Positions 1,501 through 30,442 of a DNA stretch of 30,506 nucleotides are shown here, piece by piece (positions within the stretch are counted from its first letter, which is position 1; each line of letters starts with the position of its first letter). This DNA is from a virus (taxonomy: Duplodnaviria; Caudoviricetes), in IMG/VR virus record IMGVR_UViG_3300005521_000785, positions 1 to 30,506 of that record; one strand, written 5' to 3'. A program made the translations under genes and the position numbers. The notes below the pieces were generated by a model that searched no databases, was not told the origin of the DNA, and saw nothing but the letters and a program-made list of their open reading frames with translations.

Positions 1501-1542
1501 GGCTTGATTTCACAGGTGCTTCCAATATACTTCCTTGTATAT

Positions 1543-4020: not shown

Positions 4021-4031
4021 TTACCATAAAT

Positions 4032-4802: not shown

Positions 4803-4807
4803 AAAAA

Positions 4808-6825: not shown

Positions 6826-6837
6826 AGGAGGAAACGG

Positions 6838-7518: not shown

Positions 7519-7522
7519 GGCT

Positions 7523-8895: not shown

Positions 8896-8898
8896 GTC

Positions 8899-10345: not shown

Positions 10346-10347
10346 AA

Positions 10348-12505: not shown

Positions 12506-13209
12506 AGTACTGTTATGTATCAAGTTTTTATTTTGGGTCAAGAAGAGTCTTTCCGCAGCTTTACGAAGAAGACAGATTGTTGTTCTTGAAAAAACATCTG
12601 TCGAAGCTTAAAAAGCTCAAGCATAACATTAGCCTAGCCGTATTTGTAATAAACCGAGCTGATGGTTTAGAGAGCATAGAGAAAGAAGCTCAAGAATTGA
12701 TACTTCAATTCAAAGACATAAAAACAGATATAATCTTAAGAGATAATATTGATGGTTCTTATGGTTGTTGGGAAGACGCTTTAAAAAAACATTCTGAAGA
12801 ATTTGATTATTGTTTTCTAATAGAAGACGATTATGTTCCTGTGAGTGATAATTTTGATAAAAAATTCCAAGAACATCTAAAGCGAGAAAAAGATATTTAT
12901 GCTTGTCAGTTGTGGTGGAATGAGTTCGGAGGTTATCATGCGGGCATCTCTAATGGTTTAATTAAGTGTTCCGCTTTCCGAGAAAAGGGGGAATTTAGCT
13001 TAAATAGGAACGTACACTCTTATGGGCCAGCAGAGCATAATCAAATGAATTTTCTACGTAATTTTACTGACGATGGTTGGGCTGTTGTTGATATTTGTAA
13101 AAAGTATAAAAATTTATTTTTGAATTACCAAAATAATATAGTTTGTTATGGAAACGAGAAGGGGGAAGAGCTAATAAGGCCCATTCATGACAAAGTGGGA
13201 GAATGTTAA
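12502..13209 (+). CDS. GT-A fold glycosyltransferase-like protein
   Basis: RDNIDGSYG, YCFLIEDDY (ExD) motifs; ATGA overlap. Confidence 0.65.
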   Translation: MKYCYVSSFYFGSRRVFPQLYEEDRLLFLKKHLSKLKKLKHNISLAVFVINRADGLESIEKEAQELILQFKDIKTDIILRDNIDGSYGCWEDALKKHSEEFDYCFLIEDDYVPVSDNFDKKFQEHLKREKDIYACQLWWNEFGGYHAGISNGLIKCSAFREKGEFSLNRNVHSYGPAEHNQMNFLRNFTDDGWAVVDICKKYKNLFLNYQNNIVCYGNEKGEELIRPIHDKVGEC

Positions 13210-13212
13210 ACT

Positions 13213-13671
13213 ATGACAGATATAAGTATTAGAAAAATGATGAAGTTAGATGGCGAATTTGTTCTAGAGATTAGAAACGATGATTCTACTAGGAGTAAAC
13301 TACATAATAGTAGCAAATTTACCTTAGAGCAATTTAACAGCTTCTATGAAGCGAAAAAACCATATTGGCTTATTGCGTCTTGTAATGGGGAAGATTTTGG
13401 TTATTTCAGGACTGACCATGTGGATAAAGAGAATAAAAGCATTCAGGTGGGAATGGATATACACCCAGATAAACGGGGAAAAGGGTTGGCGAGGCCATCT
13501 TACGATAAGCTGTTTAGCTATTTAAAGAATGAAGGGTTTAAAATGGTTTGGCTAGAAGTCTTGAAAAGTAACGCTCTAGCTTATAGTTTATATAAAAAAA
13601 TAGGCTTTTCAGAAACAGAAAAGTGTAAATATGGTGAGGATGAATCGATTCGAATGGAAAGGTCCATTTGA
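13213..13671 (+). CDS. GNAT N-acetyltransferase (PseH/RimJ-like)
   Basis: EIRND, IHPDKRGKGLA (motif A), LEVLKSNALAYSLYKKIGF (motif B). Confidence 0.9.
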   Translation: MTDISIRKMMKLDGEFVLEIRNDDSTRSKLHNSSKFTLEQFNSFYEAKKPYWLIASCNGEDFGYFRTDHVDKENKSIQVGMDIHPDKRGKGLARPSYDKLFSYLKNEGFKMVWLEVLKSNALAYSLYKKIGFSETEKCKYGEDESIRMERSI

Positions 13672-13686
13672 TTTCTTCGCTAAAAA

Positions 13687-14553
13687 ATGAAAAACCTAAA
13701 GATTCAAGTTATTCTTTTTTATTATAACAGGCCAAGCTTAGTCAAGCATATGGCCTTGAAGACAATGCTTGAGTCTGATTATGATAATTGGGAATTATCT
13801 TTCGTGGATGATAGTAGCGACCAACACTCAGATGAAATTTTAGAAATATTTTTTGAAGAAAATCCACAATATAAAGATAAGAAAGACAGGGTAAAAATAT
13901 TTAAAACTAACGATTCTATTGAAGAAAAAAAAGAAAGAGGAGAAGCGATATTTGGTTTAGTAGCTAACGACTCCATGCGGGAAAGCGACGCCGAAATAAC
14001 TTTGATGTTATGCGACGACGATGGCGTCATTCATGACTACTTGTCAAAATTAAATTCTTATTATCTAAACAACCCAGAGAGAATCCATTCTTATTCTAAG
14101 GTCATTCCTTATAACCCACTAAAAGGAAGAAAAACAGAAGCGAAAAAGGGAGAGTGGGTGGAGGGTAACAGCGGTTTAGAATACAAAGAATTTTCGTTCA
14201 TGCCAGAAAACTATTTAAATTGCCGAGGAGATAGCCCTCACGCAGAAAACAGCTTAGACTCTTCTCAGGTCTCATGGAGAAGGAGTAAAGCTATTGAAGA
14301 TGAAGTTTTATTTCCTTACCCTAAAACATCTAATCTAGATGCCGTTATATATAATAAAATGGATAAAAAATGGGGAGAGTGTCATTTTAATGGAATTATC
14401 GGACAGTACAAAGCTTTCTGGGAAGGTCAAAACGCATATCGTCAAGATGCAGAAGTAGAGAAAAGGTTTAATCAAGTAGATTTGTCCGCGCAAGAATTAG
14501 AGGAGTGCGGAAGGTCAAAGACTAAAACTTTGAAAAACGGTGAAACAATTTGA
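13687..14553 (+). CDS. GT2-family glycosyltransferase
   Basis: YNRP, YDNWELSFVDDSS, MLCDDD motifs. Confidence 0.8.
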   Translation: MKNLKIQVILFYYNRPSLVKHMALKTMLESDYDNWELSFVDDSSDQHSDEILEIFFEENPQYKDKKDRVKIFKTNDSIEEKKERGEAIFGLVANDSMRESDAEITLMLCDDDGVIHDYLSKLNSYYLNNPERIHSYSKVIPYNPLKGRKTEAKKGEWVEGNSGLEYKEFSFMPENYLNCRGDSPHAENSLDSSQVSWRRSKAIEDEVLFPYPKTSNLDAVIYNKMDKKWGECHFNGIIGQYKAFWEGQNAYRQDAEVEKRFNQVDLSAQELEECGRSKTKTLKNGETI

Positions 14554-14583
14554 TTTTAAAATATATTAAGTTATTTTAAATAA

Positions 14584-15537
14584 ATGAATTTGCTTGTTAC
14601 GGGAGGTTGTGGTTTTATAGGTTCAAACTTCATAAGGGTCGCTTTAGATAAAGGAGGCGTTAAAAACTTGGTTAACGTAGACAAAATGACCTATGCTGCG
14701 GACGCTGAAAATACAAAAGAATTTGAAGATAGATCAGAATATTCACATGAAAATTTTTGCTTAACTGATTATGATAGGCTCTGGGAGACCTGCAAAGATA
14801 GCGACATAACTGACATAGTTCATTTTGCAGCGGAAACCCATGTAGATAATTCAATTAAAGGTTCTAAAGTTTTTATACAATCTAACGTAGTTGCTACGCA
14901 CTCCATACTTGAAGCGTGTAAAGACAGAGACATAAGACTTCACCACATCTCTACTGATGAAGTATATGGGGAAGTGTTTGGAGACGACAGATTTTCAGAA
15001 GAAAGCCACTACGACCCAAAAAATCCATACTCAGCAACGAAAGCTGCTTCGGATTTTTTAGTAAGGTCTTACGTTAATACTTACGGACTTAGGGCAACCA
15101 TTTCTAACTGCAGCAATAATTACGGACCTAACCAGCATGACGAAAAATTGGTTCCGACGATAATACGTAGCTTGTTAAACAATGAATTGATACCAGTTTA
15201 TGGACAAGGAGCAAATGTAAGAGACTGGATTTATGTAGATGATCATTGCGAAGCTATATGGTCGATTCTAAAAGAAGGAAAGATAGGCGATACTTACTTA
15301 GTCGGAGCAGATACAGAAAGAACAAACATGCAAACGATTACATCTATATGTGACTTAATGGAAAGAACAATTTCAAGCTCCATAAAGTTCGTAGAAGATA
15401 GAGCAGGGCATGATCTCAGATACGCAATAGACGGCTCAAAGCTTAAAGAGGAATTAAATTGGAAACCTCGTTACACTTTCTTAAAGGGGTTAGAAAAAAC
15501 AATTACTTTTTACAAAAAAAAGTATAATTCACCTTAG
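14584..15537 (+). CDS. rfbB: dTDP-glucose 4,6-dehydratase
   Basis: VTGGCGFIGSNF, DKMTYA, HFAAETHVDNSI, HISTDEVYG, YSATKAASD, NCSNNYGP, RDWIYVDDH, DRAGHDLRYAID. Confidence 0.96.
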   Translation: MNLLVTGGCGFIGSNFIRVALDKGGVKNLVNVDKMTYAADAENTKEFEDRSEYSHENFCLTDYDRLWETCKDSDITDIVHFAAETHVDNSIKGSKVFIQSNVVATHSILEACKDRDIRLHHISTDEVYGEVFGDDRFSEESHYDPKNPYSATKAASDFLVRSYVNTYGLRATISNCSNNYGPNQHDEKLVPTIIRSLLNNELIPVYGQGANVRDWIYVDDHCEAIWSILKEGKIGDTYLVGADTERTNMQTITSICDLMERTISSSIKFVEDRAGHDLRYAIDGSKLKEELNWKPRYTFLKGLEKTITFYKKKYNSP

Positions 15538-17758: not shown

Positions 17759-18154
17759 ATGCAAAAGAAATACTGTACTAAATGTGGTCAAGCCACTGAA
17801 TACAAATCCGAAACTCCTTCTTTCTGCTCGAAGTGTGGTAATTCGTTTTCGGGAAAGAAATCTACAGCCACTAGATCAACCGTAAGAGATAAATCCTCGC
17901 GCTACCCTAGCGAGGACGAAGATGAATTTGAGGAAAGCTCCAGTTTTAGCTCCAACATAACTTCGTTAGAGTTTGAAGTAGAAAAATTTCCAGCTCCCAA
18001 TCCTACGATAGGCCAAGTAGCATCCCTAGGGCCGAGCGAAGCTAGCGATAAAGGACCGAAACAGCAGGAGGCTATAGCTCCAGTAGATGAAGAAAAATTC
18101 CTCAAAGATTTTCAGCAAGAGGCGGGTTCGATAAAGCGAAGAAACAATGGCTGA
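17759..18154 (+). CDS. Zinc-ribbon protein with acidic/disordered C-terminal part
   Basis: YCTKCG...FCSKCG; overlaps the start of the sigma factor gene. Confidence 0.8.
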   Translation: MQKKYCTKCGQATEYKSETPSFCSKCGNSFSGKKSTATRSTVRDKSSRYPSEDEDEFEESSSFSSNITSLEFEVEKFPAPNPTIGQVASLGPSEASDKGPKQQEAIAPVDEEKFLKDFQQEAGSIKRRNNG

Positions 18155-18830
18155 GCCCAAAAAGTTTGAAGACTTTATAGAAGTCATAGACAAAGAGATA
18201 GTAAAGAGGAAACCGAAATGGAACCTTAAATCTCTTGCTTGGCTAGACTACGATGACGTCTCACAAATTATAAGGATACATATACATAAAAAGTGGCACT
18301 TGTACGATCAAAAGAAACCGATAGGTCCATGGCTTAACGCGATAATAGCTAATCAAATCAAAAACTTGATAAGAAATAATTATGCTAACGTTTCTAGGCC
18401 GTGTTACAGGTGCGACGCTGCAGAGGGGGAAAATCTTTGTTTGATATATGAGAAACAATGCAATGCTTGTCCCATATTTGCCAAATGGGAATCCACAAAA
18501 AAAGATGCTTATAATTTAAAAATAGCATCCTCCCTAGAGCATCATGGACACGAGCTAAATAGTCGAGACTTGCAAGACAGCATGAATTTAGAGTCCAATA
18601 TAAAGAAACTACATAAAGCCATGGAGGAGCAGCTAAAACCTTTAGAGTGGAGAATATATCAATTAATTTACATAGAAAATAAATCAGATGAAGAGGTCGC
18701 AAAAATAATGGGCTATACAACTTCAGAAGCGAACAGAACCCCAGGTTATAAGCATATTAAAAATGTAAAAAAGTCCATTATAGCTAAGGCTAAAAGAGCT
18801 CTAGACAAAAACAAAATAGATATTCTTTAA
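18147..18830 (+). CDS. Phage sigma70-family (ECF-like) sigma factor with Cys-rich insert
   Basis: Region 2-like DYDDVSQ...YDQKKPIGPWLNAIIANQIKNLIR; region 4-like LKPLEWRIYQLIYIENKSDEEVAKIMG; CxxC..C..CxxC between them. Confidence 0.78.
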   Translation: MAEPKKFEDFIEVIDKEIVKRKPKWNLKSLAWLDYDDVSQIIRIHIHKKWHLYDQKKPIGPWLNAIIANQIKNLIRNNYANVSRPCYRCDAAEGENLCLIYEKQCNACPIFAKWESTKKDAYNLKIASSLEHHGHELNSRDLQDSMNLESNIKKLHKAMEEQLKPLEWRIYQLIYIENKSDEEVAKIMGYTTSEANRTPGYKHIKNVKKSIIAKAKRALDKNKIDIL

Positions 18831-18831
18831 A

Positions 18832-19914
18832 ATGAAACTCTCCGAAGAACAAAAAGAATTGATCCTTAACGAATGGAACAGTAAACTCGACGACCCCCCA
18901 TCTCTACTTACTCTTACGAAGATAGCGTTTCCTGACTTGGAGAAAGTAGATGGAAGGTGTAAAGAAGGTAAACTTGTTAAAACCTTCCTTGCAGAAAGTG
19001 GGTTAAGAGCAAGGCCAGCAAACGAATACAAGCCAAAACAAAAAATCAATTTAACAGAAGAGCAAAAAGAGTTCTGCGGTAATAACGCTTCGATGATGTC
19101 GTTCGTAGAGATAGCTAGAGTCTTATTCGCAGACGAATCCTTGAACAATTTAAGTCAAGAAGCTAAAGCGATTAAAGAGCATATAGACTCTTTGGGAAAT
19201 TCTATAATCCCATTTGAAGATCATACTAGACAGGAATTACCAGATTATAAATCTCCCAAAACTCAAACGCAAGCCTTAGCGAAAATAAAAAAATATACCC
19301 CCGATGATACAAATCCTGAAAAGATAAGCCACAAGAAGAAAAAAGAAATAAGTAGCTTAATAGGCTATCTTAATACTTACAGGTTTAATTATCAGATTAA
19401 CACTTATTCAAATCAGACCTCTAGGGACCTTTTCGAGAGCAGCTTCATAAGGTACACCCACGACAAAGAAGACTTGTCTCAAGAGGAAGTGGATCAGTAC
19501 ATAGTATTATCTACAGAAGTAGTCATAGCTTCCCATATCCAAAGACGAGTAGAGCACTTGCAGGGGCTACTGGATGACGCAGCCGACGACACTGAAGGAA
19601 GAAGAATCTCTATGTCTTTAGTAGAAGCTATCAGCAGCGCTCAAAACGAATACAATCAATCAGTTAACCGACAACATAAACTACTCGGAGACCTGAAAGA
19701 GAAAAGAAGCGATAAACTAAAAAACAAAATTAAAGCAAACGCAAGCATAATTAGCTTAGTCGAAATGTGGAAAGAAGAAGAGAATAGACATAAGATGATA
19801 AAGCTAGCTGAACTAAACAAACAAAAAGTCAAAAGCGAAATCGACAACCTGCAGAACATGGACGAATTAAAGGCTAAAATTTTAGGATTAAGCGAAGAAG
19901 ACGTTTTGGAATAG
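18832..19914 (+). CDS. Hypothetical protein, candidate terminase small subunit
   Basis: Two L[ST]EEQKE-initiated HTH-like repeats, long C-terminal coiled coil, and position two genes upstream of the large terminase. Confidence 0.45.
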   Translation: MKLSEEQKELILNEWNSKLDDPPSLLTLTKIAFPDLEKVDGRCKEGKLVKTFLAESGLRARPANEYKPKQKINLTEEQKEFCGNNASMMSFVEIARVLFADESLNNLSQEAKAIKEHIDSLGNSIIPFEDHTRQELPDYKSPKTQTQALAKIKKYTPDDTNPEKISHKKKKEISSLIGYLNTYRFNYQINTYSNQTSRDLFESSFIRYTHDKEDLSQEEVDQYIVLSTEVVIASHIQRRVEHLQGLLDDAADDTEGRRISMSLVEAISSAQNEYNQSVNRQHKLLGDLKEKRSDKLKNKIKANASIISLVEMWKEEENRHKMIKLAELNKQKVKSEIDNLQNMDELKAKILGLSEEDVLE

Positions 19915-19915
19915 A

Positions 19916-20857
19916 ATGAAGTTAGAATGTAAAGCTTGCGATAAAGTCTTCGATAGCGAAAGGAGTCTACACGCGCATATTAAAGCTCATGACTTAAGGG
20001 TAGTTTCTTATTACCAAAAATATTATCCTCGATATGATCTTTATAATGGTTCGATAATAAAGTTTAAATCTAAAGAGCAATATTTTAGTCAAGACTTTAA
20101 CAACAGAACGAACCAAAGAAAATGGATAGAGTCTCAAGATAAATCGGACGCAAAAAAATATCTCAAAAAGCTTATAGAAGAAAGAATTAAAACTAAGGAG
20201 ATTTGCTTTTCTCCATGTCAAGTGGAGCTTAGAAGCTTACTTATACCATCCATAGTGTTTTACGAAAAATTTTTTGAAGACTACTATGAGCTATGTCAGA
20301 ACATTGGACTGAATAACAAGTATAGAAAGATCAATGAACTAATTGTAGCTAACGGTTATTCAGAAAATGAAGAATTGGAGATTTTTATAGACACTAGAGA
20401 GCAGATGCCATTGGATTTTAATTTTCCTTCAAAAGTAAGGACTCTAAAGTATGGAGACTACGCTTTGAGCAATAAGGATATAACTTGCAATTGTTACATA
20501 GAAAGGAAGTCTTTAGCGGATTTTATATCAACTATCAGCGTGGCAAATCACGATAGGTTTTGTAGGGAAATAGAAAGAGCTAAAGAAGATGATGCTAATT
20601 TAGTTATCCTCGTAGAAGATACTCTTTCTCACGCTATGTCTTTTCCTTTTTTACCTTACATCTCCAAAAAGATAAAGGTTACTCCTGAGTTTATATTCCA
20701 TAAAGTAAGAAAGATGATTCAAAACTACGATCACATACAATTCTTATTTGTGAAAAATAGAGAAGAGGCTTCTCGGGTAACTGAAAAAATATTCTTTTCT
20801 AAATGCGTTTACAAGGATATAGATTTGCAGCTAGCTTACGATAAAGGAATTCTATAG
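19916..20857 (+). CDS. C2H2 zinc finger + ERCC4/XPF-family nuclease
   Basis: CKACDKVF....SLHAHIKAH; IDTREQ, GDY, IERKSLAD (ERKx3D), LVILVE. Confidence 0.88.
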   Translation: MKLECKACDKVFDSERSLHAHIKAHDLRVVSYYQKYYPRYDLYNGSIIKFKSKEQYFSQDFNNRTNQRKWIESQDKSDAKKYLKKLIEERIKTKEICFSPCQVELRSLLIPSIVFYEKFFEDYYELCQNIGLNNKYRKINELIVANGYSENEELEIFIDTREQMPLDFNFPSKVRTLKYGDYALSNKDITCNCYIERKSLADFISTISVANHDRFCREIERAKEDDANLVILVEDTLSHAMSFPFLPYISKKIKVTPEFIFHKVRKMIQNYDHIQFLFVKNREEASRVTEKIFFSKCVYKDIDLQLAYDKGIL

Positions 20858-22690
20858 ATGTGGTATGCTCCAGAAAAATATAGGCAAGGAGACTCGTTCA
20901 ATATGAACGAAGAGCTTCTAAAGCTTAAAGGAGAGCTAACAGACAAAGAAGCTAAAATTTCTTTAGCTAAGTTTCTAAGCTCTAACCTTTCGTTTACTAC
21001 AGAATTGATTTCGGGAATAAGACTAGCTCCGTTTCAGGAGATAACCTTAAAAGGCATGATGAAGAGAAATTTCTCTATGTGTGTCTGGGGACGTGGTTGT
21101 GGTAAAACTTTTATAGCTTCAGTGTTTTGTTTTCTTCATTGTATTTTCAACCCAGAGACCAAGATACTAATCGCAGGACCCACGTTTCGTACGGCAAGGT
21201 TTATATTCAATAACTTAGAAAAGATAGTTAACACAAGGGGTGCGGAGCTCTTACAACAAGCTTTTTGTACAAAACCTTCCAAAAGAAACGATCAGTATGA
21301 ATGGCTTATAAATGGAGGGAGTATCACTGCGATTCCGTTAAGTGGAGAAAAGATTCGTGGTTTTCGCGCTAACATACTGCTTCTTGACGAGTTTCTATTA
21401 CTTCCAGAAGAGATTATTAAAACCGTGTTGATGCCGTTTCTGGTTGCTCCACAAGACATGAAAGAAAGAATAAAAATAAGAGAGATGGAAGATGATCTAA
21501 TAGATAAAGGGCTTATGAAAGAAGAAGAGAGGATGGTTTTCGAAAACAATTCTAAAATGATCGCTTTGTCTTCTGCGTCTTATACTTTTGAGAATTTATA
21601 TAAAACTTATAAGGAGTGGTCTGGAAAAATATATTCAGAAGAGAGGGGGGACGCTACATATTTCATCTCTCAATTAGGTTACGAAGCTTTACCTGAAGAA
21701 ATGATAGATAGAACCGTAATAGAAGAAGCTCAAGATGGAGGCTCTTCACATTCTTCTTTTTTAAGAGAGTACTGCGCTCAATTTACTGATGGTTCTGATT
21801 CTTATTTTAGCGCACAAAAAATGCACAACTGTACGATACCCGACGGAGAGCATCCAACCACTTTGATAAAGGGAAAAAAGAACAGTAGATATATATTGGG
21901 TATTGACCCTTCCTTTTCTAATTCTCCAAGCTCTGATTTTTTCGCAATGTCTTTATTGGAAGTGGATGAGGAAACTAAAACGGGAACCTTGGTTCATTCT
22001 TACGCTGTGGCGGGTGGAGATTTAAAGGATCATATAAAGTATATGTTCTACATCTATAGTAACTTTGACGTGGAAATGATATGTATCGATAACGCGGGAT
22101 ATCAGTTTATAGATAGCTGTAATGAATCCTCTTTCTTTAGGAAGAACAATATAAACATAAAGTTTTTTGATTTTAATAGCGATGCAGAAGGACAGAATTA
22201 TATTTCAGAATGCGCCAAAGCTAAAAGAGCTTTAAATAAGCAAGATGGAGCTATATGTTTTAAGCAAACCTTCACCTCTAATTGGTTAAGAAAAGCCAAT
22301 GAGCATCTGCAAGCATGTATAGACCACAGGAAAATATGGTTTGCGTCAAAGTGCTCCGCGAACGAATCTGAATTTACCAATCAAACCTCTCAGTCTTTTG
22401 ACATTAAATTAACGGGAGAAGATTCTAAGGGCGACTTAATTGATTCTCAAGATATATTAATTTATCAAACTAAAAAACAGTGTGCTCTCGTAGAAGTTAA
22501 AAGTACTGCAAAAGGAACTCAAACCTTTGATCTTCCTCAACATCTAAAACGCTCTACAAGCGCAAGTAGAGCAAGAAAAGATAATTATACGACTCTAATG
22601 TTGTCAAATTGGGCTTTAAAGTGTTTTTTCGATATAAAATCTCATAAAAACGAATCTTCGTCAACTTTTACCCCTATAATGCTTGATTAA
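20858..22690 (+). CDS. terL: Terminase large subunit
   Basis: LAPFQ (Q motif), GRGCGKT Walker A, IRGFRA, LLLDE Walker B, LSSA motif III, REYCAQF, LGIDP / IDNAG / KDNY RNase H acidic residues. Confidence 0.92.
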   Translation: MWYAPEKYRQGDSFNMNEELLKLKGELTDKEAKISLAKFLSSNLSFTTELISGIRLAPFQEITLKGMMKRNFSMCVWGRGCGKTFIASVFCFLHCIFNPETKILIAGPTFRTARFIFNNLEKIVNTRGAELLQQAFCTKPSKRNDQYEWLINGGSITAIPLSGEKIRGFRANILLLDEFLLLPEEIIKTVLMPFLVAPQDMKERIKIREMEDDLIDKGLMKEEERMVFENNSKMIALSSASYTFENLYKTYKEWSGKIYSEERGDATYFISQLGYEALPEEMIDRTVIEEAQDGGSSHSSFLREYCAQFTDGSDSYFSAQKMHNCTIPDGEHPTTLIKGKKNSRYILGIDPSFSNSPSSDFFAMSLLEVDEETKTGTLVHSYAVAGGDLKDHIKYMFYIYSNFDVEMICIDNAGYQFIDSCNESSFFRKNNINIKFFDFNSDAEGQNYISECAKAKRALNKQDGAICFKQTFTSNWLRKANEHLQACIDHRKIWFASKCSANESEFTNQTSQSFDIKLTGEDSKGDLIDSQDILIYQTKKQCALVEVKSTAKGTQTFDLPQHLKRSTSASRARKDNYTTLMLSNWALKCFFDIKSHKNESSSTFTPIMLD

Positions 22691-22701
22691 AGTGTAATAA
22701 A
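22691..22701 (+). promoter_or_regulatory. RGTGTAWWW motif, candidate phage late promoter
   Basis: AGTGTAATAAA immediately after the terL stop, in the 29-nt gap before the portal gene. Confidence 0.5.
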
Positions 22702-22719
22702 GAATATACTTTTACGATC

Positions 22720-24663
22720 ATGAGCGAAGAATCTAAAAAGCCCGCAAAAAAAGCGGCTAAAAAAACAAGAAAACCTAGGGCTTCCGCTAAGAAAACTTCG
22801 ACGGCATCCTCAGAAACAGAACCTCTAATGACCTTTGAGAGTTTTGCTTATGACACCACTCAAACGAGAAGGAATAAATCTGCTGTAGTAAAGAGGACCG
22901 ACAGATTTAAGAATATAGACGACGGACTGGTTCCTTATAGCTACTACAGTACCCCTTATTCTACTGGAGCGGGTAATTCAGATATAGATATACGGGATGC
23001 AGTTACCTTATGTCAGAAAGCTTATTATAACTTTGCTCAGTTCAGGAATGTCATAGATTTAATGACAGAGTTTTCTATAGGTACTTTATATTTCGAAGGA
23101 GAAAATAAAAAATCCAAAAAGTTTTTCGAAGAGTTCTTCGAGAAAATGGACCTCTTTTCCTTACAGGATAGGTTTTATAGAGAATATTTTAGGTCTGGAA
23201 ATATATTTTTATATAGGTTTGAAGGCAAGCTGGCAGACGGAGACCTTAAAAAAGTAGCTAACGCTTATGGAGCTAATTTATCCTTATTGACTGAAGGTAG
23301 ACTTCCGACAAGATATGTATTTTTGAACCCAGCGGATATAAGGATGACAGGTACAGCTTCGTTCTATAAGGCTAGATATTCTAAAGTTTTAAGCCCTTAT
23401 GAGATACAAAGGATTAAAAACCCACTAACTGAAGAGGATCATACTATAAGAGAGTCTCTCGACAAAGAGACTTTGAAAAAAATAGATAGTGGAAATTCAA
23501 AAAAAGTATCGTTTCCTTTGGACTCAGATAGATTAGTCTCTGTTTTTTACAAGAAACAAGACTATGAGCCGTTCGCTGTTCCGATGGGATTTCCTGTTTT
23601 GGCCGACTTAAGCTTTAAGGATGAGCTTAAAAAAATGGATATGGCCATCGCTAGAACTATGCAACAGGCAATTCTTTTAGTGACTATGGGCACGGACCCA
23701 GACAAAGGGGGAGTCAATCAAAAGAACTTAATGTCTATGCAAAAGTTGTTTGAAAATCAATCTGTAGGAAGAGTGTTGATAGCGGATTATACTACTAAAG
23801 CTGAATTCGTAGTACCTAAAATTGCAGAGCTAATGAGTCCGCAAAAGTATGAAGTATTTAATCAAGACATCAACATGGGCTTGAATAACATTTTAGTGGG
23901 AGGTGAAAAGTTCGCCAATCAGTCGAATAAAGTCGAAGTATTTTTAGCTAGATTAGAGGCTGCTAGAGAAACCTTTCTAAACTCATTTTTAATCCCAGAG
24001 ATTAAAAAAATAGCAAGGTCTATGGGGTTTAGGTCTTGTCCCATGCCAAGGCTCTCTGAAATTTCATTAAAAGATGACACTTTAAAAGATAAAGTATATA
24101 CTCGCCTTTACGAACTCGGAGTTCTAAGCCCAGAAGAACTAATGGAAGCTCTACAGAGCAGCAGACTTCCCAAGAAAAGAGATTCTGTAGAATCTCAAAA
24201 AGAATTCTACAAAATGAAAGAGGATGGTTTCTATGAACCTATTATGAAATCAGGTTCAGAAGAGGGCGGTAGACCTGAAGGAACGGAAGGAATTAAACAA
24301 GAGACTCAAGAGGTTTCACCAATAGGAGAAGGAGAACAGTCTAAAGCTACCAATTTTAGCTTGAATAAGATAAAAGAAAATATGATTTTAGCTCAAAAAT
24401 TATCTACAGAAGTAGCAAAAACCTTGAGGAAAATGCATAAGATAAAGAGGTTTACTAATAAGCAAAAACAAGTATCTGAAGATATTTGTGAGATTATAAT
24501 CTCAAATGAAAGCCCAGATAATTGGCTAAATAGCGTAGAAAAATACTGCGAATCACCCATTGACCATAACCCAGAAAGAGTTAAGGTTGTTCAAAATATA
24601 GCCTACGAGCATCAATTAGATGCTTATTTAGCTAGTCTTTTGGCGTCTAGTATGAAGGAGTAA
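22720..24663 (+). CDS. Portal protein
   Basis: 647 aa directly after terL; portal-like pattern (FRNVIDLMTEF, REYFRSGNIFLY, FLNPADI, LYELGVLSPEE); basic disordered N-terminus. Confidence 0.8.
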   Translation: MSEESKKPAKKAAKKTRKPRASAKKTSTASSETEPLMTFESFAYDTTQTRRNKSAVVKRTDRFKNIDDGLVPYSYYSTPYSTGAGNSDIDIRDAVTLCQKAYYNFAQFRNVIDLMTEFSIGTLYFEGENKKSKKFFEEFFEKMDLFSLQDRFYREYFRSGNIFLYRFEGKLADGDLKKVANAYGANLSLLTEGRLPTRYVFLNPADIRMTGTASFYKARYSKVLSPYEIQRIKNPLTEEDHTIRESLDKETLKKIDSGNSKKVSFPLDSDRLVSVFYKKQDYEPFAVPMGFPVLADLSFKDELKKMDMAIARTMQQAILLVTMGTDPDKGGVNQKNLMSMQKLFENQSVGRVLIADYTTKAEFVVPKIAELMSPQKYEVFNQDINMGLNNILVGGEKFANQSNKVEVFLARLEAARETFLNSFLIPEIKKIARSMGFRSCPMPRLSEISLKDDTLKDKVYTRLYELGVLSPEELMEALQSSRLPKKRDSVESQKEFYKMKEDGFYEPIMKSGSEEGGRPEGTEGIKQETQEVSPIGEGEQSKATNFSLNKIKENMILAQKLSTEVAKTLRKMHKIKRFTNKQKQVSEDICEIIISNESPDNWLNSVEKYCESPIDHNPERVKVVQNIAYEHQLDAYLASLLASSMKE

Positions 24664-24666
24664 TAA

Positions 24667-25836
24667 ATGACAGAAAACGAAAACCAACAAGAATCAAATC
24701 AAGAAGAGGTTTCTTCTGATGTCGTAAAGTCAATGTATGATGAATCATTCGATATCTCAATGGAAGATTTAATGATTCCCGACGTGCAGGAGGAAGCCAC
24801 TAAAGGAAACATTGTTGAAGATAAGGTAGAAGGAGCTTTTAAGTTTTGCTTTTTGGGAGCAGGGCAAGGAGGCTCTAGGATCGCTGAATCTTTTAATAAA
24901 AAGGGTTATGAACGAGTAGCTGTTATAAATACCGCAGAGCAAGATTTAAATACTATTAACGTAAAAAATAAGCTTTTGATTGGAGAGGGTGGGGCTGGAA
25001 AAGACCCAGCGGTAGCAAAAAAATTATACCAAGAAAAAGAAAACGACATTTTAGATTTTATTCGTTATTCTTTCGGAGAAGAATTTGATCGTATTTTTGT
25101 ATGCGTTGGAGGTGGGGGAGGCACAGGCTCTGGACTCGCTACGAGCTTAGTGGATGCAAGTAAGGAAGTTTGCGAAGCTATGAAACTCCCCACTTCTAAG
25201 GTTGGCATGATATTGACTCTACCAAAAAATTCAGAAGGTAGGGGGGTATGCAACAACGCTTCGAATTTGCTAAGAGAGGTCATGGATCATGTGGATAGCG
25301 GAAAAATTTCGCCCCTCATTATAGTTGACAATGAAAGAGTCGCTAACCTATACCCAAATCTTCCAGTCTCTAAGTTTTGGGACGTTGCGAACGGAAGCAC
25401 TTCTGGGTTGTTTCACCTTTTTAATCATACAGCTTCTAAAGATAGTACTTATTCAAGTTTTGACGCTAATGATTATAAAAATGTTTTAGACTCTGGTTTG
25501 ATCGTTTTTGGAGCTTCACCAGTTAAAGATTGGCAAGATTCAATCGCTATCTCTAGGGCCGTTAGGGAGAATTTGAAGGGAAATTTATTGACGGGAGGTA
25601 TCGACTTAAGCCAAGGTTCTACCGCTGGAGCAATTGTTATAGGAGGAAAAGAGCAGCTAGATAATATAAAACAAATGGACCTCGACGATGCATTTTCTCA
25701 GTTATCTAGAATGTTGAAGCCAAATACTTTAGTTCATAGAGGAATTTACAGCGGTAATCAATCTGGACTTACTATATTTACTGTAATCGGAGGATTAGGA
25801 TTACCTCAAGAGAGATTAAAAAGTTTAGAGACGTGA
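24667..25836 (+). CDS. FtsZ/tubulin-superfamily GTPase (phage tubulin)
   Basis: GAGQGGSRI (T1), INTAEQDL (T2), GAGKDP (T3), GGGGGTGSG signature (T4), LP..SEG (T5), IVDN (T6), FDAND (T7); AAGGAG SD upstream. Confidence 0.92.
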   Translation: MTENENQQESNQEEVSSDVVKSMYDESFDISMEDLMIPDVQEEATKGNIVEDKVEGAFKFCFLGAGQGGSRIAESFNKKGYERVAVINTAEQDLNTINVKNKLLIGEGGAGKDPAVAKKLYQEKENDILDFIRYSFGEEFDRIFVCVGGGGGTGSGLATSLVDASKEVCEAMKLPTSKVGMILTLPKNSEGRGVCNNASNLLREVMDHVDSGKISPLIIVDNERVANLYPNLPVSKFWDVANGSTSGLFHLFNHTASKDSTYSSFDANDYKNVLDSGLIVFGASPVKDWQDSIAISRAVRENLKGNLLTGGIDLSQGSTAGAIVIGGKEQLDNIKQMDLDDAFSQLSRMLKPNTLVHRGIYSGNQSGLTIFTVIGGLGLPQERLKSLET

Positions 25837-25882
25837 GTAGCGTTCTCTGGAAAGTAAAGGAAAATAAACAGGAAAAAAAGTT

Positions 25883-26086
25883 ATGGCAGATAATAATATT
25901 AAACCAGGTTGGAAAACTACCGAATTCTGGATTACAGTCGTCGTCTCGGCCTGTTCTCTATTGTGGGGAGCAGATGTGCTAGACCCAGAAGCCGCTGGTA
26001 CAGCTAATAAAATCTTCGGATTTGTAGTCGCTGCACTTAGTAGCCTTGGATACTCTGTGTCCAGAGGTATGGCGAAAAAGGGCTAG
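25883..26086 (+). CDS. Two-TM holin-like membrane protein (67 aa)
   Basis: KPGWKTTEFW then two hydrophobic segments and a basic C-terminus (RGMAKKG). Confidence 0.6.
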   Translation: MADNNIKPGWKTTEFWITVVVSACSLLWGADVLDPEAAGTANKIFGFVVAALSSLGYSVSRGMAKKG

Positions 26087-26089
26087 TCT

Positions 26090-26269
26090 ATGTGGGTAGC
26101 CTTTATAAAGGCCCTGTTAGATTGGCTTACCGCGCTCGTTAAAGAAGACACTAAGGCGAGCGACGCCGACGGCACACCTAAGTCCCTAAAGGACAGGTGG
26201 CGAAGAAGGATAGAAGAACAGGAAAAAAAATCCAAAGAAAATGAAGAAGACATTAATACTTCTGAGTAG
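26090..26269 (+). CDS. 59-aa protein, possible i-spanin-like (not in ORF track)
   Basis: Translated by hand: MWVAFIKALLDWLTALVKEDTKASDADGTPKSLKDRWRRRIEEQEKKSKENEEDINTSE. Starts 3 nt after the holin-like stop and overlaps the next gene by 29 nt. Confidence 0.6.
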   Translation: MWVAFIKALLDWLTALVKEDTKASDADGTPKSLKDRWRRRIEEQEKKSKENEEDINTSE

Positions 26270-26459
26270 TTTTTTATTTTTTGTAGGCTGTGGTTCTACC
26301 AGAGTAGTATTTGTTGATACTAGCTCTGACCTTGTAAGAATTGGTCCTAAGGTAGAAGGTAGAGTTTACATAATGAAAAACGGAGAATGGGTCCTCTCTA
26401 AGAGTAAAGTAAAAATACCAGAAGGCTGGTACGCGGGAGGTCTGCCCAGAGAAGAATAG
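26241..26459 (+). CDS. Small lipoprotein, possible o-spanin-like (72 aa)
   Basis: MKKTLILLSSFLFFVG-C lipobox signal; start lies inside the upstream ORF. Confidence 0.65.
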   Translation: MKKTLILLSSFLFFVGCGSTRVVFVDTSSDLVRIGPKVEGRVYIMKNGEWVLSKSKVKIPEGWYAGGLPREE

Positions 26460-26474
26460 TTTTTTTAAAAAAAC
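26459..26474. repeat. 16-bp perfect palindrome
   Basis: GTTTTTTTAAAAAAAC directly at the end of the lipoprotein gene; low complexity. Confidence 0.5.
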
Positions 26475-26504
26475 ATAGGCAGTTGTCAAGAAGCTTCATC
26501 TTTT

Positions 26505-26515
26505 GGTGTATTTAC
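26505..26515 (+). promoter_or_regulatory. RGTGTAWWW motif, candidate phage late promoter
   Basis: GGTGTATTTAC; core 13 nt before ATG 26524. Confidence 0.5.
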
Positions 26516-26523
26516 ATTAAGGG

Positions 26524-27072
26524 ATGAAGCTTTTTTTTATATTTTTATTAATTAATTTAGCTACTGGATGTGGTTTGCTTCAATCTATATCTGAGAATTC
26601 TCTGTACTGTAAAGAGAGAGCTATGGCAAAAGACCCTCTTCATGTTTGGAGTTGTGGGCCAGAAGCTTTATATGACGTAATTCATTATATGAAAATAGAC
26701 CCATTTGTAACGAGGGAAAAAATTAGCAACCACATACAGACAAGTAGCATTTTGCCGATAAGAGGAGCTCTTTCTATCTTTAATGAAAAAGCTAGAAATA
26801 TAACTTTTCCTCAAGAGATGCTGGGAGTATTAAAAGTATATAACATATCTGCAATCAAGAAAAAGAGCTTAAACGAAATAAAGAGAAATGAATCTGCTAT
26901 TGTTCTGATAAGAGACAAGAATTCGCTTTTTAGTTATCATTGGATTTTTTACCCAAAGCATTCTCTTCGGCGTATAGGGAGTTTTTTTGGTGTAGATTCT
27001 ACAGATATCGTAAGTGTCTACATATTAAAGAATAATAATGATGATTATTTTCTTTCTAACCACCTACCATAG
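26524..27072 (+). CDS. Putative lipoprotein with C39-like (papain-fold) cysteine peptidase domain
   Basis: Signal ending LATG-C; SCGPEAL catalytic-Cys motif; AIVLI...YHWI His motif. Confidence 0.6.
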   Translation: MKLFFIFLLINLATGCGLLQSISENSLYCKERAMAKDPLHVWSCGPEALYDVIHYMKIDPFVTREKISNHIQTSSILPIRGALSIFNEKARNITFPQEMLGVLKVYNISAIKKKSLNEIKRNESAIVLIRDKNSLFSYHWIFYPKHSLRRIGSFFGVDSTDIVSVYILKNNNDDYFLSNHLP

Positions 27073-27698
27073 TACAGCTTGGGCCAGCTAAGTCTCATTT
27101 CGGATTCCACTTCTCCCTGCCAGAGTTTACTTTCTTTTGGAGTGTTCATTTCAAACCCTCGTGGTTTATGCCACGCTGCTTTCTTTATAAATTCTAGTGC
27201 GTCGGCTGTTCCCCATACTTTTTGATTTGGCCAGTGACCAACGCCGTTTTTTATTGGTCCAAGGGCCTTATAAAGCTCGTTTAGAGTAGGTTTATCAAAA
27301 TGAATAAACGGAATACGTGATGGGACGCATTGAGGAATATGGACGGGGTTAAAGTCAGACATTTTGATTGGCGGTTTATAATGTTCGATGTGTTTGTATC
27401 CAACTATCACTTTATTTGTCTTATAAGTTCCATCGTCAGGAACATAATCTTTGATTATTGGGACAGGTGGGCGATAAGGATAATGATGGAAATAAACCCG
27501 ATCATCAGCAGTCTGAAGGATGATTCCTTTAGCGGAAGGAGAGTCGTCGAGCACGAACCTAATTGAGACGTTATTTAATACAGTTCCGTCTTTGAATGCA
27601 ATTCGTGGCATACGATAGCGCGTTTTATCAGTGTTAAACTGAGCAATGCATACATTAGTCAACAGGATTAAGATAAGTACTTCAGTCAGTCTTTTCAT
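27045..27698 (-). CDS. Secreted hypothetical protein (217 aa)
   Basis: N-terminal signal peptide MKRLTEVLILILLTNVCIA; Pro-rich; own promoter; 28-nt tail-to-tail overlap with the upstream gene. Confidence 0.7.
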   Translation of the reverse strand: MKRLTEVLILILLTNVCIAQFNTDKTRYRMPRIAFKDGTVLNNVSIRFVLDDSPSAKGIILQTADDRVYFHHYPYRPPVPIIKDYVPDDGTYKTNKVIVGYKHIEHYKPPIKMSDFNPVHIPQCVPSRIPFIHFDKPTLNELYKALGPIKNGVGHWPNQKVWGTADALEFIKKAAWHKPRGFEMNTPKESKLWQGEVESEMRLSWPKLYYGRWLERK

Positions 27699-27707
27699 TA
27701 TGTATAC

Positions 27708-27736
27708 ATTGTATTTCTTTTCTTGGAAAAAGTAAA
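27708..27736 (-). promoter_or_regulatory. sigma70-like promoter, near-leaderless
   Basis: Minus strand TTTACT (27736-27731), 17 nt, TACAAT (27713-27708); ATG 9 nt downstream. TTTACTTTTTCCA resembles the early TTGACTTTTTCCA. Confidence 0.65.
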
Positions 27737-27801
27737 GCTTTTTTTTACTTGTATTCTTTTTTATTTAAATTAAAATTATTTATTTTAAATGAAGTCTTTT
27801 A

Positions 27802-27812
27802 AGTGTATTAAT
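27802..27812 (+). promoter_or_regulatory. RGTGTAWWW motif, candidate phage late promoter
   Basis: AGTGTATTAAT; core 11 nt before the in-frame GTG 27819. Confidence 0.45.
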
Positions 27813-27818
27813 GTTCGC

Positions 27819-28352
27819 GTGAGTTCTGAAGACCTAGAGAAAGAAAAGGAAAAGATAGACCCTCAAGAGAGGGCTATTTTATACTCTAATAACCTCTTAA
27901 AGGCTTTTGACGGTAAAGCTAATGAGTTTAATGAGCTTCACGAACAGAAAGTAACCCCCAGTCAAATTAAATCAGTTTATTTAAATGCTGTTTCTCTACG
28001 GCTAAACCCAGATGTTAAAAACCTATATGCTTTCGCCAGAATAAATCTTTTTTTTGACATGCTTACTGGTAAGGAAGCTTTCCTGACGGGCGTCTATCCT
28101 CAATCAGAACCTCTGGAGGAAAAGACTGTAGGTTTGGTGTTTGAACTCGTTGATGTTAGGAATATTAGTCGGGGTAAAGAAATAGAAAAACCTATAGATT
28201 TTTTTGAGCAATATTCTATGGTTGAAAATCATTTTTCTCAAGCAAGGGAAGACCTAGTTAAGTATGATGTTGATTTTGTGTTAAGTTCAGCAGATGACGA
28301 ATTGTTCTTAACTAAAAATAAAAAATGCAACTATTTATGGGAGATTTTATGA
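27819..28352 (+). CDS. Hypothetical head-module protein
   Basis: ORF track 27789..28352; GTG 27819 preferred because of the motif position; ATGA-coupled to the protease gene. Confidence 0.65.
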   Translation: MSSEDLEKEKEKIDPQERAILYSNNLLKAFDGKANEFNELHEQKVTPSQIKSVYLNAVSLRLNPDVKNLYAFARINLFFDMLTGKEAFLTGVYPQSEPLEEKTVGLVFELVDVRNISRGKEIEKPIDFFEQYSMVENHFSQAREDLVKYDVDFVLSSADDELFLTKNKKCNYLWEIL

Positions 28353-29866
28353 AAAAACACGAATATACTACATCTTTTAGCTCTACGGTTAAACCTTTAG
28401 TATCAGAGCAGAAGGATGAAATTTTAGCAATAGCAAGCCTAGAAGAGATTGGAAAATTCTTGCCAGAAATTGACACTGACAAAAATGTGGATTTATTGCC
28501 AATTGCATTTAACGCTTGCGTCGTAAATAGAGCTAATAAGAATGGCGATGTGATCGATGCAAATACTGCAATTGATGTATATGGGTCATTTATAAACAAA
28601 CCAATTAACATAGAACATAATAGAGAGAGATTAATCGGAGTTATCTTAACTGCTGGATTTAGTGAGTTCGGTACAGATATTCCGATAGAGGCAGAAGAGG
28701 TAGTTGAAAGGACTGATCCGTTTAATATCACTCTGGGAGGAGTGGTTTGGAAGGCTGTAAACTTGGAATTAGCAGACAAAATAGAAGACTCAAGCGATCC
28801 TTCTAGCGAGAGTTTTATGAAAGTTTCAGCTAGTTGGGAGCTTGGTTTTACTGATTATGAAATAGCTATAGTATCTGAAGGAAAAAATATAGCGGACGCT
28901 GAAATTGTTTCTGCGGAAAAAGATGTAGACGCATTAAAGCAATACCTTAAGGGCTTTGGGGGTTCTGGAGTACTTGAAGACGGAAGAAGCGCGTATAGAA
29001 AAGTCATCAATGACGTTGTTGCTCTTGGTATAGGACTAACAGTAAACCCAGCCGCAGACGTCAAAGGGTTAATAAGTCCAAAAACGATTAAAGAAGATAA
29101 TCAAGAAGAATTTCTGGAAAAAGAAGCCAAATCATCCGAATCGGAGGAAAAAATGCAGAAAACAGAAAAAAACAGTTCACAAACTATGGAAAAAAATGTA
29201 GCAAATAACAAAGGTAAAGTCATGAAAATTAATAGTACTAAAGATATTTCGGACGAAAACCTCCAAGAGCTTACAGCCTCTCACATTGCGGAGTTGATTG
29301 AGTCAGAACTCAAGACGGCTTCAGAGAAATACGCTGAAGAAAAACGGGAGGTTGAGACTCAGCTCCAAGCTGCTCAAGATCAGGCGACAGCCCTTGAGGA
29401 AGACCAAGAAAAGCTCAAGGCAGATTTTAACGCTGTTAAAGAAGAGTTAGAGAAACTTAACTCTGAAATAGCAGCGAAAGAAGCTGAAGATAAGTTTAAT
29501 CAACGCATGTCTATGTTCGATGATACTTACGAACTTTCAGATAAAGATCGTGAAGTTATCGCCTCCGAACTAAAAGATATGAACGATGAGACTTTCGAAG
29601 CTTACGCCAGTAAAATGGCAATTCTTCTGAGTGCGAAGAGCAAAGAGCAAATTGCTAAGCTGGAGGTTGAGAAATCTACAGAAGAGCAAGAGGCTAAAGC
29701 TTCAGAAGAAAACAAAGAAGCTTCTAACGAAGTTTTAGAAGAAGCTATTTCTCAGGCCGAAGAGGAGAAGGAAGAGATTCCTGCGTCCGCAGAGGCATCT
29801 GAGCAAACTGTATATGACAAATACAAACAAGCTTTTGATATCGACCAGTTCGACGTAAAGCTTTAA
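28349..29866 (+). CDS. Prohead maturation protease fused to coiled-coil scaffold
   Basis: NKNGD, PINIEH (His), ASWE (Ser), IGLTVNPAA; Glu/Ala/Lys-rich coiled-coil C-terminal half. Start 28349 has a GGAG SD and ATGA overlap. Confidence 0.82.
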   Translation: MKKHEYTTSFSSTVKPLVSEQKDEILAIASLEEIGKFLPEIDTDKNVDLLPIAFNACVVNRANKNGDVIDANTAIDVYGSFINKPINIEHNRERLIGVILTAGFSEFGTDIPIEAEEVVERTDPFNITLGGVVWKAVNLELADKIEDSSDPSSESFMKVSASWELGFTDYEIAIVSEGKNIADAEIVSAEKDVDALKQYLKGFGGSGVLEDGRSAYRKVINDVVALGIGLTVNPAADVKGLISPKTIKEDNQEEFLEKEAKSSESEEKMQKTEKNSSQTMEKNVANNKGKVMKINSTKDISDENLQELTASHIAELIESELKTASEKYAEEKREVETQLQAAQDQATALEEDQEKLKADFNAVKEELEKLNSEIAAKEAEDKFNQRMSMFDDTYELSDKDREVIASELKDMNDETFEAYASKMAILLSAKSKEQIAKLEVEKSTEEQEAKASEENKEASNEVLEEAISQAEEEKEEIPASAEASEQTVYDKYKQAFDIDQFDVKL

Positions 29867-29890: not shown

Positions 29891-30442
29891 ATGGCAGTAA
29901 CATTAAGACCATTTAGAGATTACGACGAGAAGGATGTAATTAACTTATATCACTTCTCGGGATCAATCCCTGCAACCAAAGGACTTTTGGTTAAGATTCA
30001 GGGCAACGGGTGGGTCTCGTCTGACGAGATCGCCATGCTTGGCAGTGTCGGTAATTCTTACAGCAATACAGTTTCAGAACGCTATGGCGTTGAGGCTGCT
30101 GTAACAACTGCTGGCGCGGCAGATTCCCCGATGGGAATGATGCTTTTCGATGTTAAGGAAACTGACGAAAACGGTGAGAAACTTGTATTTAATCCTCGCA
30201 AAGCTGCGGAGATGGATATTGTTTTGAGCGGACAAGCAGTTCCCGTCGTTACTAGAGGAATATTCCTTTATAGCGGAACTCAACTAGCGTCTGACGCCCC
30301 AACGGCTGGACAAAATTTGTACTGTGGTGCAAACGGTGAAATTATCACTGGCAACCCAGGTAGTGCTAATACCAAGGTGGGACGTGCTTTAGGCACGAAG
30401 GATAGCGATGGAGTTATCCTGATCAGCCTTGATTGTAGCTAA
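29891..30442 (+). CDS. Head decoration / capsid cement protein
   Basis: 183 aa, Gly/Ala/Val-rich beta pattern (VPVVTRG, TAGQNLYCGANGEI, KVGRALG), between scaffold and putative capsid gene; GGAG SD. Confidence 0.7.
   Translation: MAVTLRPFRDYDEKDVINLYHFSGSIPATKGLLVKIQGNGWVSSDEIAMLGSVGNSYSNTVSERYGVEAAVTTAGAADSPMGMMLFDVKETDENGEKLVFNPRKAAEMDIVLSGQAVPVVTRGIFLYSGTQLASDAPTAGQNLYCGANGEIITGNPGSANTKVGRALGTKDSDGVILISLDCS

Follow-up and report, generated by a model that had tools for sequence, protein, structure and literature searches.

The window analysed is the whole 30,506 nt stretch of the virus record IMGVR_UViG_3300005521_000785 (Duplodnaviria; Caudoviricetes); coordinates written as start..end refer to features on its + strand. 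A gene coding for a 389-amino-acid GTPase of the tubulin/FtsZ superfamily (24667..25836), with a TubZ-like fold that stops after a short H11-like helix, lies directly 3′ of the gene for a predicted portal protein of 647 amino acids (22720..24663). The TAA stop codon of the portal ORF (24661-24663) is separated from the tubulin ATG by 3 nt, which themselves form a second TAA, and a Shine–Dalgarno-like AAGGAG (24655..24660) is placed 6 nt 5′ of this ATG, so that both the spacing and the dedicated ribosome-binding site given in a preliminary description of this DNA were recovered. The portal label is based on the position of the gene after that of the terminase large subunit (TerL; 610 amino acids, 20858..22690, assigned by family matches), on the Atlas portal clusters (feature score 0.98, TM 0.67) and on a weak tblastn match (E = 4e-5) to annotated Bacillus-phage portals; no portal match was obtained for this ORF in Pfam, PHROG or NCBIfam. 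Positions 18147-20857 of the window hold a sigma factor, a 360-amino-acid ORF without a family match and a zinc-finger/ERCC4 nuclease, which in almost every relative are located 5′ of terL, whether or not the tubulin gene is present. The ORFs between the sigma factor and terL are candidates for the small terminase and a packaging nuclease.

Three short ORFs follow the tubulin gene. The first encodes a small membrane protein of 67 amino acids (25883..26086) from a virus-only family, with one hydrophobic window; its nearest named Atlas cluster is holin (0.79), which is taken as a lead only. The second (59 amino acids, 26090..26269) overlaps the third, which encodes a predicted lipoprotein of 72 amino acids (26241..26459) with a hydrophobic leader and a lipobox-like FVGC at residues 14-17; this overlap may be a spanin-like arrangement. 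None of the three gave a family match, lysis families included, and endolysin matches lie far from this locus. Small membrane genes are found after the tubulin gene in 22 of 47 representatives and in none of the 12 that lack tubulin; in one relative (L151) all three small genes are present although no tubulin gene lies within 3 kb. The lysis-like character ascribed to these ORFs in the preliminary description, and their tie to the tubulin, can be put forward only weakly. A 20-pair hairpin at 26488-26535 overlaps a GTGTAT motif and the start of a 182-amino-acid ORF. Further downstream are a conserved head-block protein of 513 amino acids (28325..29866), which has no family match in Pfam or PHROG, is a protease/scaffold candidate by position only and was used for its conserved order as a downstream marker, and a capsid cement/decoration-like protein (29891..30442; PF09956 above the cut-off). 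At the other end of the window, a 14 kb run (1504-15537) consists of sugar-nucleotide, aminotransferase, glycosyltransferase-like and related genes, as labelled by reading their translations.

The record is judged to be ~20% complete. Relatives of 81-116 kb are rated as 50-71% complete, and from these lengths and completeness values a genome of about 150-190 kb, mostly near 155 kb, would be expected. One relative (G001, 71% complete) carries lambda-type minor tail genes, the central fibre J, rIIA/B, a ligase and RpoD-like and ECF-like sigma factors; an ORF of ~4,980 amino acids or more is located in its tail region (L087:6-14957). The phage group is siphovirus-like, with genomes estimated at about 150-160 kb. 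No PHROG match to multisubunit RNA polymerase or nuclear-shell families was obtained in about 75 of the 83 ORFs of G001, 58 of the 79 of G002 and 39 of the 59 of G004, all of which are partial genomes, and the phage probably builds no nucleus. In the cultured-phage collection TerL matched at only 22-31% identity and no cultured relative was found there. The RpoD-like gene of G001 has matches of 34-42% spread over many phyla, which indicate no host.

The 389-amino-acid protein matched PF00091 (Tubulin) at 57.6 bits against a cut-off of 33 in Pfam, together with a sub-threshold match of residues 262-387 to PF22453 (TubZ-like_C). Its motifs are GAGQGG (64-69), NT (88-89), GAGKD (109-113), the T4 loop GGGGGTG (residues 148-154; 25108..25128), P186/E190, DN (221-222), N242 and the T7 loop FDAND (residues 265-269; 25459..25473), in which both acidic residues are present. 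The nucleotide-binding motifs and the T7 acids D266 and D269 are unchanged in 76 of 76 dereplicated homologues, in agreement with the complete GTPase motif set reported previously; among the wider family representatives D266 is retained in 192/192 and D/E269 in 189/192. The Asn found in the FtsZ NxDxxD motif is absent from this T7 loop and equally from that of RepX/TubZ. In eight of eight tubulin pairs dN was 0.024-0.088 with dS >1 or saturated. The ORF is an intact tubulin/FtsZ GTPase under purifying selection. The possibility of a fragment or premature stop was discarded since the C-termini of close homologues fall at nearly the same position, only a few residues apart. The protein scored 69.9 bits with the FtsZ equivalog TIGR00065, below the cut-off of 295.2, and 20.8 bits (cut-off 27, residues 138-213 only) with FtsZl1/Tubulin_2 (PF13809); no Tubulin_C match was found in the Pfam scan. 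A host FtsZ on a misbinned contig was also discarded: the genome scan gave two loci, on contigs of 12 and 16.5 kb, and both genomes also encode a canonical FtsZ, and the locus L247 is at least 80% identical to the viral L192.

Two confident models of the tubulin were obtained with AlphaFold2 (pTM 0.83 and 0.87). The top sequence match among solved structures was RepX/TubZ (4ei7, E = 2e-16), which was also the best structural alignment (Z 36.9, rmsd 2.2, 325 residues aligned), followed by CetZ2 (Z 34.8), FtsZ (29.4), BtubA (26.3) and PhuZ (21-22); the top of this order was unchanged in a separate structure search. The BtubA alignment (299 of 413 residues) falls well under that of TubZ and does not place the protein among the eukaryote-type or BtubA/B tubulins.

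A word-indexed search with the tubulin returned 992 proteins, and a full profile search gave 280 clusters at 50% identity with E <1e-30, whose members are routinely labelled FtsZ in annotations. The only cultured-phage match was Bacillus phage G gp138 (25%, E = 8e-9). In an IQ-TREE phylogeny built from 12 references and 37 family members, the latter group together (91/93) to the exclusion of FtsZ, PhuZ, plasmid TubZ and gp138, and the FtsZ references form their own clade (99/95). FastTree with 192 family rows (10 intein-sized rows being left out) joined the family to plasmid TubZ at 0.999 and supported the family alone at 0.75; this sister relation is found with FastTree only. CetZ, BtubA/B and c-st sequences are in neither tree. 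The portal-linked members fall in a single subclade (0.974 in FastTree; 99/96 for four of them in IQ-TREE). The family is large and mostly viral and forms a clade that excludes the FtsZ, PhuZ and TubZ references, and the distinctness from these three groups that had been claimed for the protein therefore stands. Ten members (P0124, P0128, P0147, P0157, P0175, P0216, P0227, P0236, L189 and L205) have 745-961 amino acids, and in several the profile match is split in two, which suggests inteins in phage tubulins; two others (P0154 and P0159) have 157-186 additional C-terminal residues resembling another domain. Within the freely accessible main texts searched, no description of the family or of the phage group was found, and huge-phage surveys may list such genes as FtsZ or PhuZ. 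The words phage, virus and viral do not occur in the main text of a family-wide tubulin phylogeny (PMC9871819); a section of PMC7824862 mentions two types of tubulin among cultured jumbo phages, PhuZ is the subject in the part consulted of PMC10299810, and gp138 of phage G is referred to in a passage of bioRxiv 2024.12.16.628780 as an uncharacterised FtsZ/tubulin-like gene.

The fold, the T7 loop without Asn and the start of H11 are shared with TubZ/RepX of type III plasmid/prophage partition (B. cereus 4ei7, B. thuringiensis 2xka/3m8k, c-st 4xcq/3v3t). The protein differs from these in its ~21% identity, its separate clade (91/93, with no nesting within plasmid TubZ), its acidic N-terminal arm, its place in a late head operon and the lack of a neighbouring tubR or tubC. 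Each of five plasmid TubZ loci has a gene of 100-145 amino acids just upstream, whereas here the portal gene abuts the tubulin in 59 of 81 loci; an adjacent tubR was not found at the locus, where the portal occupies the upstream position, and no repeat or iteron-like array of the tubC type is present in 22000-28500 or in the window as a whole. The preliminary description had listed an iteron array, a TubR-like gene and a chimallin-like gene as missing from the window. The first of these absences holds, but that of TubR and chimallin says little as the window is ~20% of the genome. PhuZ of the chimallin phages is likewise phage-encoded, and the moving of proheads that is proposed here for the tubulin has been shown for PhuZ in experiments described in PMC7950403; the tubulin is nevertheless distant from PhuZ in fold and tree, lacks the C-terminal acidic knuckle and belongs to a siphovirus-like phage with sigma factors. 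CetZ (H. volcanii CetZ2, 4b45; CetZ1, 4b46; 3zid) was compared by structure only; it is the second-best fold and has a similarly short C-terminus, but the identity is 22% and CetZs are archaeal chromosomal cell-shape proteins. With bacterial and archaeal FtsZ the core fold is common (Z about 30), and the FtsZ of M. jannaschii resembles the tubulin in being extended at the N-terminus and in ending early, whereas the identity to the aligned structures is 20-25%, the equivalog cut-off is not reached, the linker and C-terminal peptide are missing and the clade is separate. Phage G gp138 is likewise a non-PhuZ phage tubulin; it has, however, a 65-residue tail, no arm and no place in a head module, and falls outside the family clade.

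By structural alignment the last residue of the tubulin corresponds to residue 371 of B. cereus TubZ (RepX), 294 of PhuZ-phiKZ and 331 of CetZ2. As RepX has 435 and PhuZ-phiKZ 327 amino acids, the tubulin is 64 and 33 residues shorter, respectively, at the C-terminus, and the absence of an FtsZ linker or C-terminal peptide and of a PhuZ/TubZ tail, noted previously, was reproduced. In the models most of H11 and the entire tail are absent and a short helix of eight residues (381-388) is left. Only 13 residues follow G376 (8-33 in 74 complete homologues) compared with 69 in E. coli FtsZ, where the linker and the conserved C-terminal peptide are located; the flexible C-terminal tail of the TubZ type (20 to >60 residues) is equally absent. 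A conserved acidic N-terminal arm was found, which goes beyond the preliminary description, as does the promoter motif described below. The arm carries an acidic-hydrophobic motif at residues 29-38 (24751..24780; family pattern D-I-S-[LM]-P-D-[ILM]-x-x-P), in which D29 is conserved in 75, P33 in 70, D34 in 71 and P38 in all 76 of the 76 sequences of alignment A1, the remaining extension being variable. Deepening the alignment raised the pLDDT of residues 31-40 from 49 to 68, which may be a hint that the arm docks.

Among 192 family representatives, 140 have short tails (6-40 residues past the G376 position), 42 have long tails and 10 may be truncated. Acidic arms occur in 103 of the 140 short-tailed and eight of the 42 long-tailed members, and the motif pattern in 83 and three, respectively. 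Between 67 and 96% of the short-tailed members retain the basic residues at 82, 83, 178, 300 and 348, against 10-24% of the long-tailed members, which have an extended helix, an acidic patch and often a basic end. Since most of the long-tailed members belong to one lineage, this contrast reflects one or a few evolutionary events. Several long-tailed members (L175, L176, L191, L203, L205, L223 and kin) come from phages of 200-470 kb, where they are mostly located just 5′ of an SF2 helicase and replication genes. From the distribution of arms and tails it is possible, and a reasonable idea, that the acidic arm is a stand-in for the missing C-terminal tail. In passages of PMC5322520, c-st TubZ without its tail is reported not to assemble in dilute solution and to lose GTPase activity, and the TubZ tail to bind partner proteins; sections of PMC3678025 and PMC7950403 describe the acidic knuckle of PhuZ as contacting the next subunit and as critical to polymerization. 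CetZ2, which has a short end, crystallized as a protofilament (4b45), and this counts against the need for a substitute tail. Arm-to-core covariation in 140 sequences was dominated by conservation artefacts, and in fold searches the arm aligned to no solved part apart from a loose match to the N-terminus of M. jannaschii FtsZ. The arm is also kept in loci outside the portal context and is thus not a portal-specific adaptor.

The terL–portal–tubulin order is conserved within this phage group. The tubulin gene was found 3′ of the portal gene on the same strand in 81 of the 81 closest viral loci, collected in two viral scans; the second comprised the best 80 of 260 loci, so that these are close relatives, and one locus (L001) is identical to the window. 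The distance from the portal stop to the tubulin was at most 11 nt in 59 loci, 32 nt in two and >1 kb in 20. In one lineage (L003:8400-9900, L019, L034, L056 and kin) an ORF of 434-436 amino acids with no Pfam or PHROG match is located between the two genes. In metagenome contigs, which are partly the same DNA, the portal gene was upstream in 69 of 80, nine contigs being too short and two having the tubulin gene elsewhere. For 45 loci the tubulin and portal trees shared 27 of 42 splits, the tubulin and TerL trees 30 of 42 and the TerL and portal trees 28 of 42 (0.2 when shuffled). The tubulin tree tracks the portal tree as well as that of TerL does, so that the tubulin gene must have been passed on together with the head module.

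The linkage is looser when the portal is the starting point. Among the best 80 of 542 loci in a portal search, 23 span the region from the portal to the 513-amino-acid gene and 14 of these 23 have no tubulin. In a portal tree of 97 representatives, a sample biased toward tubulin presence, 63 have the gene, 12 do not and 22 are undecided, and at least three lineages have lost it, one of them recently (L146). A core head gene is ruled out by these absences and separate losses: the tubulin is an accessory, and sister lineages assemble heads without it. A low-GC sister lineage (L122-L174, ~30% G+C) has no tubulin between the portal and head genes throughout and forms a natural control set. In nine relatives negative at the portal locus (partial records, 15-65% complete), a weak test for relocation, no tubulin was matched. 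In other phage groups, for which the sampling of distant short-tailed members is thin, annotation covered 25 of 48 loci; 13 of these have a helicase, DnaB, primase, UvsX or polymerase among the six neighbours and only one (L178, T4-type portal) has a portal. A tubulin of 59% identity (L307) has tail fibre J on one side and a tape-measure-like gene on the other, i.e. it is in a tail module. Another (L220, 41% identity) belongs to a different subfamily, grouping at 100/100 with L211 from a replication module, and is inserted between a GTGTAA motif after terL and the portal gene. 

A late-promoter-like GTGTAA motif (22692..22697) is present 28 nt before the portal ATG and is likely to drive both the portal and tubulin genes. 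Of 96 portal genes, 78 have the motif in the 60 nt preceding them, as against 0 of 82 terL genes and 0 of 28 small-membrane genes, and the late co-expression with head genes suggested in the preliminary description is likely on this placement. Sites matching GTGTA[AT] lie 18-19 nt before the portal ATG in 35 of 85 cases. In three long contigs they precede 12 of 137, nine of 126 and six of 128 ORFs, where 1.6, 1.3 and 1.1 would be expected; most of these ORFs belong to the stretch that starts at phoH and continues through the head and tail block. Using 76 tubulin representatives at 90% identity from 216 loci, a motif of its own was found upstream of the tubulin in 13 of 17 displaced copies (>25 nt from the portal) compared with five of 43 abutting copies (Fisher p = 2.6e-6, which ignores relatedness, the displaced cases coming from about four lineages). 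The tail-module tubulin L307 is also preceded by the motif. From the displaced copies, L307 and L220 it follows that late timing, and not contact with the portal, seems to be selected. From its placement we infer that GTGTAA is a late promoter read by a phage sigma factor; the sigma-70/ECF-type factor encoded at 18147..18830, conserved upstream of the head block, is the candidate reader. No + strand terminator-like sites were listed between the portal and the small genes. A sigma-70 promoter scan was uninformative (23 sites, 20.7 expected), and one seawater RNA run, in which 5% of the words were present, carries no weight for expression.

On balance, it appears an even chance that the tubulin is a late, dispensable, GTP-driven filament which positions or carries proheads or the packaging site. 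In the proposed sequence of events the phage sigma factor would direct transcription of the tubulin together with the portal from GTGTAA and the tubulin would form GTP-driven filaments, the acidic arm taking the place of a C-terminal tail by docking, on the same or the neighbouring subunit, against a basic patch (R83, K178, R300, R348). The filaments would carry or position proheads between the assembly site and the replicated DNA in the manner of PhuZ, probably without a nucleus, and would act as a helpful accessory for yield or timing in some hosts and not as a required step in head building. The protein has a TubZ-like fold and, by hypothesis, PhuZ-like action, and belongs to neither group. 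Treadmilling PhuZ moves empty capsids from the membrane to the DNA, as set out in part of PMC7950403, and the proheads of the siphovirus SPP1 are described in the available text of PMC13212656 as beginning at the membrane and going to the DNA compartment. The latter also weighs against prohead carriage, as in that text SPP1 proheads relocate with tubulin mentioned only in the reference list; the filament itself is called into question by the dependence of both studied tubulins, TubZ and PhuZ, on their tails (passages of PMC5322520 and PMC7950403).

The cargo might instead be DNA, with a TubZ-type tubulin that acts through an adaptor from another locus to position or segregate the replicated phage genome, the head operon setting the timing only. 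The nearest fold is that of plasmid TubZ (Z 36.9), to which FastTree joins the family (0.999), and relatives in other phages adjoin replication genes (13/25 loci); this reading is nonetheless unlikely, as a small TubR-type gene is not found upstream, unlike in the five plasmid loci, the window has no repeat array, the partner-binding tail described in part of PMC5322520 is absent and a late promoter would suit the partition of a resting prophage poorly. Fairly improbable is a host-directed role in which late tubulin would cap or co-polymerize with FtsZ, or its own filament would block division or reshape the cell for a larger burst. Against it are the identity of only 20-25% to the aligned FtsZ structures, the TIGR00065 score (69.9 versus 295.2 bits) and the conservation of both the T4 and T7 faces, as for self-assembly, when a cap would need only one. 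Inhibitors of host division are usually early genes, which counts against this role as well. The lack of the membrane-anchoring tail of FtsZ would favour it, patchy loss would fit a host-dependent function and phage inhibitors of FtsZ are reported (PMC10714956). The short C-terminus is family-wide and is also seen in CetZ and M. jannaschii FtsZ, so that alone it is no mark of a poison.

In the tubulin/FtsZ family the T7 acids act in trans across the filament contact. Their retention (D266 in 192/192, D/E269 in 189/192) argues against long filaments being absent altogether, i.e. against a tail-less protein that works in monomeric or short oligomeric form, perhaps as an internal head protein or assembly factor with its arm docked on the scaffold or portal. 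This is just as improbable as a host-directed role, if not more so: the arm is retained where head genes are not nearby, and CetZ2 ends soon past the same point yet crystallized as a protofilament (4b45), although the location of the gene between the portal and head block would be compatible with it, as would the tail-dependent assembly of TubZ and PhuZ reported in parts of PMC5322520 and PMC7950403. That the tubulin localizes lysis proteins encoded just downstream is highly improbable. The 67-amino-acid membrane gene does follow the tubulin in 22/47 representatives and none of the 12 without it, but it is missing in the other 25; L151 with its three small genes and no tubulin within 3 kb, the lack of lysis family matches and the distant endolysin matches point the same way.

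Capsid transport on a tubulin filament has so far been shown, in the work described in part of PMC7950403, for nucleus-forming jumbo phages. If late prohead carriage is true, a tubulin under the late promoter of common, ~150 kb siphovirus-like phages would extend cytoskeletal organization to ordinary phage factories. A broader form of this proposal is doubtful: a third kind of phage cytoskeleton, in which a widespread tubulin with its tether moved to an N-terminal acidic arm would have been recruited repeatedly into the late regulon of nucleus-less siphoviruses and would carry proheads to the packaging site. The mechanistic puzzle is that TubZ and PhuZ need a C-terminal tail, whereas these tubulins keep the catalytic contact without one. 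Natural controls exist in pairs that differ in having a tail or arm and in close phages that differ in having the gene, and the family, usually annotated as FtsZ, is a large one.
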